The notes under the pieces: generated by a model
Databases searched by the model: none
What the model saw: the letters and a program-made list of their open reading frames with translations, nothing else
What the model was told of the DNA's origin: nothing
Assembly: GCA_964627085.1 (NCBI GenBank)
Contig: CAZVIP010000002.1
Span: forward strand, 85,151-149,150
Source: an uncultured Candidatus Saccharibacteria bacterium
GTDB taxonomy: Bacteria > Patescibacteriota > Minisyncoccia > Phycocordibacterales > CAIZLB01
Direction: 5' to 3'
DNA length: 64,000 nucleotides
Part shown: positions 39,073 to 40,116 of the stretch, in pieces
Position numbering within the stretch: position 1 is the stretch's first letter
Layout: each line of letters begins with the position of its first letter
Position numbers and translations under genes: made by a program

Positions 39073-39169
39073 ATGTGAAATATAGTATATGAATATCAAA
39101 AATAGACAATAAAGTGAGATGAAATTAAGCCAAGGGTGAGCACAGGGTGAATGAAAATGAGATAAAAAT

Positions 39170-39202
39170 GTGAAATAAAAAAAGCCGGCTATGCACCAGC
39201 TG
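39170..39202 (-). terminator. Minus-strand intrinsic terminator: AGCUGG-ugcauag-CCGGCU followed by UUUUUUUAUUU
   Basis: A 6 bp stem (with one G-U pair) followed by a U7 run. It would end a minus-strand transcript coming from the GC-rich region upstream of tlyA. Confidence 0.5.
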
Positions 39203-39960
39203 AAATTCATCTTTAACCAATCCCTCGTACAAGGTCCTTCCACGTAAGGACCCCAGATATAATACAGAGTGCAACTCAGGCGCTCACACGATTTCCCACG
39301 CATAGCACCGAGACAAAAGCGTTCTCTATATTATATCAACTCATGTACCAGTGTGAGTCTCACGTTTTGTTCGTTCCACTTTTGATGGGGTACGACTTGA
39401 TTTCCACACCTCTTGGAAAACCTATTGTATATGGATACCCTGGCAGTTTATTGCCATGCACCCTCTTGAACTTTCAGGACTTTCTCCTGCGCATGATTTG
39501 TTTTGTGCACGTAAATCATGTACGCATTTAAAAATACTGGGAGAGACAGATTACATGTATCACCTGAATGTGCTCGCGAAGTGCGAGTATTATTACAAGT
39601 GGCAATAAATAAAATGTCAGCTTCGGCAGGTGTCAATTTGCCTTTTTCGCCAGTGCAGAGTGGTCCCTGCATCAGTGAGGTAAAAAACTACCTCAAATTC
39701 AATCGGTGGAATGCGCATTTCTGCTCCGACTCGCCGCTAACTATGCGGCCTGAATGGGCGGTTGTTTGTGCTCTTCGGGAAAGGTGAACACAACTTAATT
39801 TCACAAGGCGATTCGTGGTACCGCCTGGATGGATGCCCAAAAGTGCATCCCTCTCTATTAATATGTATATACAATGTGAAGTCGGGCCTCCGAAATTCCG
39901 TTTCGGTGTACTGATCTACTCCGCTCAAAAGGATATCAAGACCTGACTACATGTCAATCA
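39203..39960 (-). ncRNA. GC-rich, hairpin-dense ~0.75 kb noncoding region, a candidate structured ncRNA or ncRNAs. Its class is unresolved: it resembles RNase P RNA only weakly and the 3' end is not tmRNA-like.
   Basis: The intergenic gap between tlyA and eno is about 1 kb, which is exceptional for this genome. Multiple perfect hairpins are present: GGUCCUU..AAGGACC, CUCGC-GAAGU-GCGAG, CCGAAA-UUCCG-UUUCGG and GAGGUA..UACCUC. The minus strand contains GGAGAAAGUCC (similar to the RNase P P4 5' strand) and GUGGGAAAUCGUGUGAGCGCC, but a consistent P4 or P1 pairing could not be verified by eye. Confidence 0.25.
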
Positions 39961-40116
39961 ATTTACCGATTTATTTTATAGGACACTTTTTATAAGGTAC
40001 TTCAAACATATACACGATATACCTAGATACGATATAGCCTATGTTTTTCTTTATGGTACAATCTCACCTGTAACTTATAAATAATTCAGGATTTAAAAAA
40101 AATAAATACAGAACTT

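Follow-up and report, generated by a model that had tools for sequence, protein, structure and literature searches.

Between the divergently transcribed genes tlyA and eno, the 64-kb stretch of patescibacterial DNA analyzed here (contig CAZVIP010000002.1, hereafter the window) holds a noncoding gap of 1044 nt at positions 39073-40116. We propose, at a probability of roughly 45%, that its core is an independent, lineage-restricted gene for a structured noncoding RNA (ncRNA) of about 750 nt, read from the minus strand and most likely acting in trans as a stable RNA. The candidate RNA belongs to no described RNA family and, if real, would be a new family of large structured bacterial ncRNA. A preliminary description of this DNA had considered the gap the most plausible site for a gene of RNase P RNA or tmRNA, with a novel large structured RNA as fallback; the evidence presented below favors the fallback and supports the minus-strand orientation.

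In the mechanism that we envisage, a narrow, Paceibacteria-like lineage of Patescibacteria would have gained the gene by insertion between the promoters of tlyA and eno, which are divergent. RNA polymerase would initiate at a promoter of the sigma-70 type (39957-39930), read in the tlyA direction and transcribe a single unit as far as an intrinsic terminator (39201-39176), about 100 nt short of the promoter region that belongs to tlyA itself. The predicted RNA fold is a series of local hairpins that fall into three or more domains, and two sequence blocks (39812-39914 and about 39437-39561) are near-invariant between strains. Its most likely mode of action would be that of a stable trans-acting scaffold or protein-binding partner, as for the OLE, ROOL, GOLLD and raiA RNAs, rather than that of a messenger or regulatory leader. 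A somewhat bolder conjecture sees in the element the first example of a novel patescibacterial class of large structured RNAs (~750 nt, with several domains), acquired as a self-contained unit between housekeeping genes and with its fold under selection.

Extent and composition of the gap

The borders of the gap are set exactly by the start codons of tlyA (38200-39072, minus strand, ATG at 39072, with S4 and FtsJ domains) and eno (40117-41544, plus strand, ATG at 40117), as had been described. Its size is exceptional: the window's longest run without a stop-to-stop frame of at least 110 codons, 750 nt, is found here, and the runner-up has 542 nt. Two further "gaps" of about 800 nt that came from a crude gene call were artefacts with open frames of 251 and 191 aa inside, and the apparent gaps at 26407-27213 and 49149-50026, considered as sites of paralogues of the element, were rejected as coding and unrelated. 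GC content is 29% in the spacer on the tlyA side (39073-39175), 45.1% in the core (39176-39925) and 28% in the spacer on the eno side (39926-40116). The center of the gap had been called GC-rich, which holds relative to its spacers and not in absolute terms, the average of the whole window being 39.8%.

Putative transcription signals on the minus strand

A consensus scan of the minus strand found a promoter-like site at 39930-39957, composed of a -35 element TTGACA (39957-39952), a 16-nt spacer and an extended -10 element TGATATCCT (39938-39930), which together match 10 of 12 consensus positions plus the TG. Transcription from this site is predicted to start at about 39922-39926. At the other end of the core, a motif scan placed an intrinsic terminator at 39176-39201 (stem AGCUGGU/GCCGGCU, loop GCAUA, U7); the minus-strand terminator noticed earlier was thus found again, its stem at 39201-39183 being followed by a T7 run. 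Because eno points the opposite way, this terminator can be used by no other minus-strand gene upstream. In a second strain, described below, a U.G pair of its stem is replaced by C-G, which strengthens the stem. As motif matches, therefore, a promoter and a terminator of its own are present on one strand, as in an independent ncRNA gene, and they bracket a predicted noncoding transcript of about 750 nt (39176-39925), to which the absence of a coding signal, the GC content of 45.1%, a folding z of -3.1 and the sparing of structure in the second strain also point.

Inside the element, a perfect extended -10 element, TGATATAAT, lies on the minus strand at 39338-39330, in the 5' arm of a 14-bp stem. 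The end of L094, a short contig from the same strain, falls exactly at 39323, the position at which this promoter would start transcription; TGATATAAT could be the internal start of an RNA of about 145 nt, or it could be there by chance.

Substitutions in a second strain

A second version of the locus was reached with HMMER, by joining the open frames of the gap as one query against 1.84 billion protein representatives. The search returned the self-hit and a spurious 57-aa open reading frame (ORF) call, P0242, which led to L178, a 904-nt contig from a different metagenome that carries the same locus in another strain and spans window positions 39077-39914. L178 is 93.4% identical to the window over 39214-39914 (45 substitutions and one 1-nt indel) and 84% identical over the tlyA-side spacer. 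Ahead of the terminator, after the last of the conserved hairpins, it holds about 61 extra A/T-rich nt (L178 positions 144-202), in which UGAUCA-AAC-UGAUCA can form a hairpin. The strain of the window itself is present in about 20 assemblies, all 100% identical over the gap, and the eight contigs compared for population variation are uninformative for that reason.

The substitutions in L178 spare the structure of one strand specifically. We threaded the L178 sequence onto the fold predicted from the window alone, either globally or with pairs spanning at most 100 nt. On the minus strand the threading cost was 31 kcal/mol (global) and 21 kcal/mol (at most 100 nt) vs 47-52 expected, with p = 0.013 and 0.002 under random placement of the substitutions and p = 0.017 and 0.0014 under a spacing-preserving circular shift. 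The same tests gave no significant sparing of plus-strand structure (0.26/0.12 and 0.26/0.17). Sparing limited to the minus strand is what an RNA read from that strand should show if it tolerates G.U pairs.

Of the 204 pairs in the consensus fold of the two sequences, three changed on both sides and are still paired, namely 39584/39576 (G-C to A-U), 39392/39374 (U-A to C-G) and 39304/39285 (U.G to A-U), and six changed on one side via G.U, the terminator pair being one of these. A further paired change, 39523 G>A with 39511 C>U, is compatible with a different local helix. Two stretches free of substitutions, 103 nt (39812-39914) and 73 nt (39438-39510) long, exceed what random placement gives (p ~0.03 and ~0.02, respectively), and indels avoid the core, with 1 gap column in 680 nt vs 75 in about 160 nt.

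Predicted fold

The region had been described as dense in hairpins, and we counted 13 perfect stems of at least 5 bp, vs 4.6 +/- 2.4 in dinucleotide shuffles (p = 0.006), a level reached by only about 3-6% of windows of the same size. Folding of the whole region (791 nt) gave z = -3.1 for the minus and -3.4 for the plus strand. In 150-nt windows, z averaged -2.0 on the minus and -1.4 on the plus strand of the core, vs about -0.6 in the coding flanks, and the strongest local fold (z ~-5) was found at 39200-39349. Loops of the UUCG type, which had also been noted, do occur, on the plus strand, and two of them are gone in L178.

Read from its predicted 5' end on the minus strand, the element begins with the 103-nt invariant block (39812-39914; 0 substitutions between strains), which holds the hairpins CCGAAA/UUUCGG (39906-39890) and GGAUGC/GCAUCC (39850-39831). 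The hairpin GGCGGU/ACCGCC (39807-39825) shows a one-sided change, G.U to G-C at 39821/39811, that is tolerated on the minus strand only. It is followed by GCCGC-AUAGUUA-GCGGC (39733-39749), the loop of which differs in L178 and the plus-strand reading of which is the "AANYAA" frame treated below, and by CUCGC-ACUUC-GCGAG (39573-39587), which reads CUCAC-AACCU-GUGAG in L178: 4 of 5 loop bases are changed, and the stem keeps its pairing through the compensatory G-C to A-U at 39584/39576.

The central block, with 2 substitutions only across 39437-39561, includes the 73-nt invariant run (39438-39510). It comprises an 8-bp stem CAUGAUUU/AAAUCAUG (39520-39492), the hairpin AGGA-GAAAG-UCCU with the string GGAGAAAGUCC (39487-39477), and part of GGGUGC[UGGCA-AUAAAC-UGCCA]... 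(39463-39433). Downstream, the two-part hairpin UCGU..CCAU/GUGG..ACGA (39371-39395) carries the compensatory U-A to C-G at 39392/39374 as well as U.G to C-G at 39385. The 3' domain (39256-39337) has an invariant 14-bp A/U-rich closing stem (39337-39324 / 39269-39256) around a variable interior and is the most stable local fold of the gap (z ~-5); its changes in L178 include a compensatory switch of the pair 39304/39285 from U.G to A-U, and at 39271 a G-C pair becomes G.U. A 9-bp hairpin, GGGGUCCUU-ACGUGG-AAGGACCUU (39231-39254), is invariant between strains, and a variable linker (39202-39230), where L178 has its extra nucleotides and 6 substitutions, leads to the terminator.

Distribution among relatives and origin of the insertion

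The organism belongs to the Patescibacteria. Its enolase shares 83-90% identity with proteins of metagenome-assembled genomes labelled Pacebacteria or Parcubacteria, whereas no other TlyA exceeds 48% identity to its own. In seven relatives the local order Dus, tlyA or a small ORF, eno, iPGM, ... T2SSF is kept, with 105-246 nt upstream of eno vs 1044 nt here. The eno-proximal ~110 nt, including a conserved extended -10 element TGGTACAAT near 40045-40056, align with the full intergenic region of the relatives. Given that short region and its alignment to the eno-proximal end, the core of about 0.75 kb is therefore an insertion between two divergent promoters. Both flanks lie outside the RNA. The segment 39958-40116 (plus strand) holds the eno promoter and 5' region, as seen in the alignment with two close relatives (L095 and L096), and is the counterpart of the relatives' entire intergenic region; the A/T-rich spacer 39073-39175 holds tlyA's own promoter region (minus strand) and aligns with the relatives' short intergenic region.

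By enolase synteny, the element was absent from the eno locus in 80 metagenome loci and 7 close relatives, and by TlyA synteny it was absent beside the closest TlyA homologues (42-48% identical). No second copy was found in the window with nhmmer or covariance models, and blastn against 50,697 phage records and 72,556 plasmid records gave no match that would indicate a phage or plasmid origin. Viral contigs gave three exact 20-mer matches, all within coding sequence and coincidental; two other invariant 20-21-mers had no match. An insertion sequence or a miniature inverted-repeat transposable element was rejected, as the borders lack terminal repeats, whether inverted or direct, there is no target duplication, and the window has a single copy.

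The foremost alternative, which we regard as less likely, is that the core is inserted DNA without present function, such as a horizontally acquired fragment or a relic of a mobile element or foreign gene, that is hairpin-rich by chance and may or may not be transcribed. Confinement to one lineage and absence from the same site in seven relatives speak for it, as does the lack of homologues in the searches of phage, plasmid and relatives' DNA and of protein representatives; against it stand the matched promoter and terminator signals and the lack of terminal inverted repeats, target duplication and any detectable protein remnant. The neighborhood accepts foreign DNA, since a second lineage-specific insertion lies just beyond tlyA: between Dus and tlyA (36047-38210) there are a response regulator (126 aa), a 233-aa ORF and a histidine-kinase-like ATPase (313 aa), all missing at that position in relatives (in L095, Dus adjoins tlyA). 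The contig L178 covers almost exactly the element, as expected of a strain-variable segment that breaks assemblies, and the core is not significantly more conserved than the spacer next to it. These points are to be set against the specific sparing of minus-strand structure, the presence of compensatory pairs, the two invariant blocks longer than random placement of substitutions gives, and the nearly indel-free 680 nt of the core. The GC content of the core, 16 points over that of the neighboring spacers in a genome whose noncoding DNA has 28-29% GC, also argues against functionless DNA.

Several observations weigh against an RNA gene and keep our proposal tentative. The local z-scores are moderate, not extreme. 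In L178, 13-15 predicted pairs are broken, and a fold-independent count of compensatory pairs (spans of at most 100 nt) is marginal (7 vs 3.3, p ~0.05) and strand-symmetric; alifold likewise yields a self-consistent fold on either strand. Because only two distinct sequences of 93% identity are available, the covariation rests on a handful of events. Identity between strains is 94.3% in the core vs 91.5% in the spacer (substitution rates 5.7% vs 8.5%), a difference that is not significant (p = 0.35), and the promoter-like site lies outside the L178 contig. Finally, neither nhmmer nor two covariance models of conserved domains found homologues of the element in about 1.8 Mb of relatives' DNA, a sample that covers each genome only in small part; the element is thus unlikely to have a universal role in the cell and may be dispensable.

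Relation to tlyA

An RNA that lies directly upstream of tlyA on the same strand, in both strains, with a terminator about 105 nt before the tlyA start, could instead be a very long cis-acting leader. Transcripts from 39957 would then read through into tlyA whenever the hairpin 39201-39183 is prevented from terminating, so that the element would be a sensor controlling an rRNA methyltransferase. We consider this improbable. Here tlyA retains the short A/T-rich promoter region of its relatives, and the relatives regulate tlyA without such a leader. A length of 750 nt far exceeds that of known attenuators, no antiterminator partner for the terminator arm was seen, and a 61-nt insertion is tolerated in L178 right beside the terminator.

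A resemblance to a substrate of TlyA might be taken to favor the leader. The plus-strand hairpin GCCGC-UAACUAU-GCGGC (39733-39749), within the element that adjoins tlyA, shares GCCG and UAACUAU with helix 69 (H69) of 23S rRNA (GGCCGUAACUAUAACGGUCC), which TlyA has as a substrate. The H69-like reading is, however, on the strand disfavored by the evidence and thus on the wrong strand for a tlyA leader, and its loop is variable (UGACUAU in L178). The likeness is probably a coincidence.

Coding potential

With 26 long ORFs of the window as its training set, a codon model gave no coding signal in the core: the best of the six frames scored -0.07 to -0.28, vs +0.25 to +0.6 in the neighboring genes. 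Ten open frames of the gap had no match in Pfam and matches at chance level only in PHROG, and none of the ORFs of the gap showed an excess of third-position substitutions relative to L178. The long minus-strand frames are broken in L178. A decayed pseudogene with detectable protein homology, which had been named as the finding that would speak against a structured RNA, was looked for in these searches, and no codon signal, Pfam match or protein homologue was found.

Only one ORF in the gap has ever been called by a gene caller, a frame of 74 aa on the minus strand (39672-39448). It was called on two short contigs, and its codon score is weakly positive (0.17), so that one or more small protein genes might be supposed here. 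Yet the 74-aa sequence matches only itself among 5.8 billion proteins, and no others were found among the 1.84 billion representatives. Its frame is interrupted in L178, where the longest minus-strand frame has 57 codons; the substitutions are spread 5/6/5 over codon positions 1/2/3, and no Shine-Dalgarno-like sequence precedes its ATG. A small protein gene is hence a very doubtful explanation of the element.

RNase P RNA

The preliminary description had found two minus-strand strings reminiscent of RNase P RNA. Both are present, GGAGAAAGUCC at 39487-39477 and GUGGGAAAUCGUGUGAGCGCC at 39299-39279, and the second shows 4 substitutions in 21 nt in L178. The scan with Rfam covariance models that it had proposed as a check used the 4227 models of Rfam 15, at the gathering score and then at E<=10 with permissive filters, on 1301 nt, on 431 nt spanning the RNase P-like segment and on the whole window; no family matched in the gap on either strand at either setting. 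The assignment to RNase P RNA thus failed, since neither RF00010 nor RF00011 matched at E<=10 and partners for P1 and P2 are missing. The underlying argument, that a gene for RNase P RNA or tmRNA most plausibly lies here, was a weak one: the prior for finding either in the window is low because 64 kb is a small fraction of the genome.

An extremely diverged RNase P RNA might still be sought in the 3' half of the element (~39545-39176), with a P3-like hairpin, GGAGAAAGUCC as a motif like conserved region I (CR-I), and a P4 formed with GCCGGCUU at 39189-39182. The order of motifs is suggestive (the hairpin 39520-39492, GGAGAAAGUCC, AGAGGGUGC with a hairpin, AGAUGAAU at 39212-39205, and GCCGGCUU) when set beside Escherichia coli M1 RNA, and the block with the CR-I-like motif is invariant between strains; the same strings, however, fit different parts of M1 RNA equally well. 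The RNase P RNAs of the Candidate Phyla Radiation (CPR) have diverged and in many cases score under the Rfam cut-offs, yet all examples in the study that showed this were recovered by RF00010 at lowered thresholds (Lui et al., PMC8172020), whereas no RF00010, RF00011 or other match at E<=10 was obtained here.

Details of the putative P4 also speak against this assignment. P4 is formed by CR-I (GGAAAGUCC...) and CR-V (ACAGAA..CCGGCUUA) with a bulged U, and GGAGAAAGUCC and GCCGGCUU could pair as AAG[U]CC/GGCUU; where CR-V has ACAGAA, the sequence before GCCGGCUU reads GCAUAG. The only 3' strand available for P4 is the same segment as the terminator's descending arm, and L178 differs by a change that makes the terminator pair more strongly. 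Directly after that strand come the U-run and then the A/T-rich spacer, and by inspection no 5' segment was complementary to the sequence after it. The 61-nt insertion of L178 falls just before the putative CR-V. The CR-II/CR-III module (J11/12-J12/13) is not recognizable; there is a loose likeness only (AGAGGGUGC, AAUAAACU), which can be aligned equally to P7/P8. CR-I-like 9-10-mers occur 13 times in 1.8 Mb, and the four carrier loci that were scanned hold no RNase P RNA. Nothing comparable was found in the relatives' loci (~1.8 Mb, small parts of genomes), which offered no real RNase P RNA for comparison either. We therefore treat the resemblance as coincidental and give an RNase P RNA at this site very little credence.

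tmRNA, split tRNA and group I introns

The tag-like plus-strand frame that had been pointed out, ending in AANYAA and a stop, does exist (39733-39753); the tmRNA that it might announce was found neither by ARAGORN nor by Rfam. In L178 an AAC of the frame is changed to GAC (N to D) and the in-frame TGA is removed by a 1-nt insertion, so that the stop is lost and a residue is replaced. ARAGORN reported no tmRNA or tRNA at default settings, nor when introns of up to 1 kb were allowed, and produced implausible calls only at lowered thresholds. The tRNA-like domain of tmRNA (acceptor stem, T-arm, CCA-proximal end) was not found with ARAGORN or the Rfam tmRNA families.

A group I intron interrupting a tRNA gene or another RNA gene was considered as well, because Patescibacteria often carry such introns in RNA genes, where standard tools miss them; they have been found with RF00028 at E<1e-4 (Nakagawa et al., PMC13011429). 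In the gap there was no tmRNA, tRNA or RF00028 match even at E<=10, and flanking tRNA halves were not found. Since, in addition, plus-strand structure is not spared by the substitutions, a plus-strand tmRNA or split RNA gene is effectively refuted.

Other features of the region

Between the promoter-like site of the candidate RNA and the eno promoter lies a tandem 15-nt direct repeat, ACATATACACGATAT / ACCTAGATACGATAT (40006-40035), which may be a regulator binding site. TlyA has 291 aa here vs 235-273 aa in homologues, and the added length is apparently a low-complexity insert rich in Thr, Asn and Pro (...TAGISARTDKNTDVPTGTNINTPTDTKPKRE...). In enolase (window 40117-40240), about 40 additional N-terminal residues, in which Lys, Ala and Pro are abundant, precede the Pfam Enolase_N domain, which begins at residue 41; the enolase starts of the close relatives L095 and L096 resemble this extended N-terminus.

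The stretch between eno and iPGM (41545-42298), including a called 134-aa minus-strand ORF (41661-42065), gave no coding signal (codon model -0.04 to -0.25) and contains several windows with folding z of -2 to -6; relatives hold unrelated ORFs of varying size there. Elsewhere in the window, a perfect 31-bp inverted repeat with 4 inner pairs (60311-60388; fold -86.5 kcal/mol, z = -11) lies where two genes converge, namely ORFs of 207 aa and 479 aa with their ends at 60150 and 60385, respectively. It draws several chance-level Rfam hits on both strands and is probably an unusually long bidirectional terminator. A replication origin in the region was rejected from sequence and skew profile, with one weak DnaA-box-like site and no turn of the skew.

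Significance and comparison with known RNAs

Bacterial ncRNAs longer than about 500 nt are rare and, to our knowledge, every such RNA found so far (RNase P, tmRNA, OLE, GOLLD, ROOL) is biochemically unusual. The genomes of Patescibacteria are tiny and have hardly any DNA to spare, and the lineage is thought to evolve mainly by loss. A 750-nt RNA gene retained in such a genome would point to a function worth its cost. If our proposal is true, an RNA selected for its fold in a minimal genome would imply a real role in the cell or in interaction with a host, and it would provide a compact new RNA fold for structural study as well as a marker of recent gene gain. If it is not, the element would be an example of hairpin-rich inserted DNA that mimics an RNA gene. 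The short motif resemblances, meanwhile, are a caution against assigning RNase P RNA or tmRNA from them.

Compared with known systems, the element shares with tmRNA (RF00023 and its permuted forms) a short plus-strand frame ending in ...AANYAA and a stop within a hairpin. It differs from tmRNA in having no tRNA-like domain, in the silence of ARAGORN and Rfam, in a frame that is not conserved in L178 and in evidence that favors the opposite strand. Like type A RNase P RNA (RF00010), it has a hairpin followed by GGAGAAAGUCC and, about 300 nt downstream, ...GCCGGCUU, which could form a 5-bp P4-like helix with a bulged U; its 3' half, of about 370 nt, is also comparable. Unlike RNase P RNA, it has no covariance-model match, no P1/P2 and none of the conserved regions of the specificity domain, its P4 3' strand is a terminator arm, it has an extra 5' half of about 380 nt, and no counterpart was found in the ~1.8 Mb of relatives' DNA.

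Long 5' leaders and attenuators, such as riboswitches, T-boxes and ribosomal-protein leaders, likewise combine a structured RNA with an intrinsic terminator upstream of a co-oriented gene, here tlyA. The element is, however, 3-5 times longer than these, tlyA keeps its own promoter region, no antiterminator was identified, and relatives lack the element.

The candidate RNA differs from OLE, ROOL, GOLLD, HEARO and raiA in matching no family covariance model of Rfam 15. Whereas OLE, ROOL, GOLLD and raiA, large RNAs whose functions are at best poorly known, come from hundreds of species, the element comes from two near-identical strains, its covariation is far weaker, and it has no known link to phage, tRNA clusters or particular partner genes. 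With these same four RNAs (PMC12286853, PMC5737381) it nonetheless shares the character of a stand-alone gene of several hundred nt with no ORF, a GC content above that of the surrounding noncoding DNA, many local hairpins arranged in domains, and a patchy distribution.

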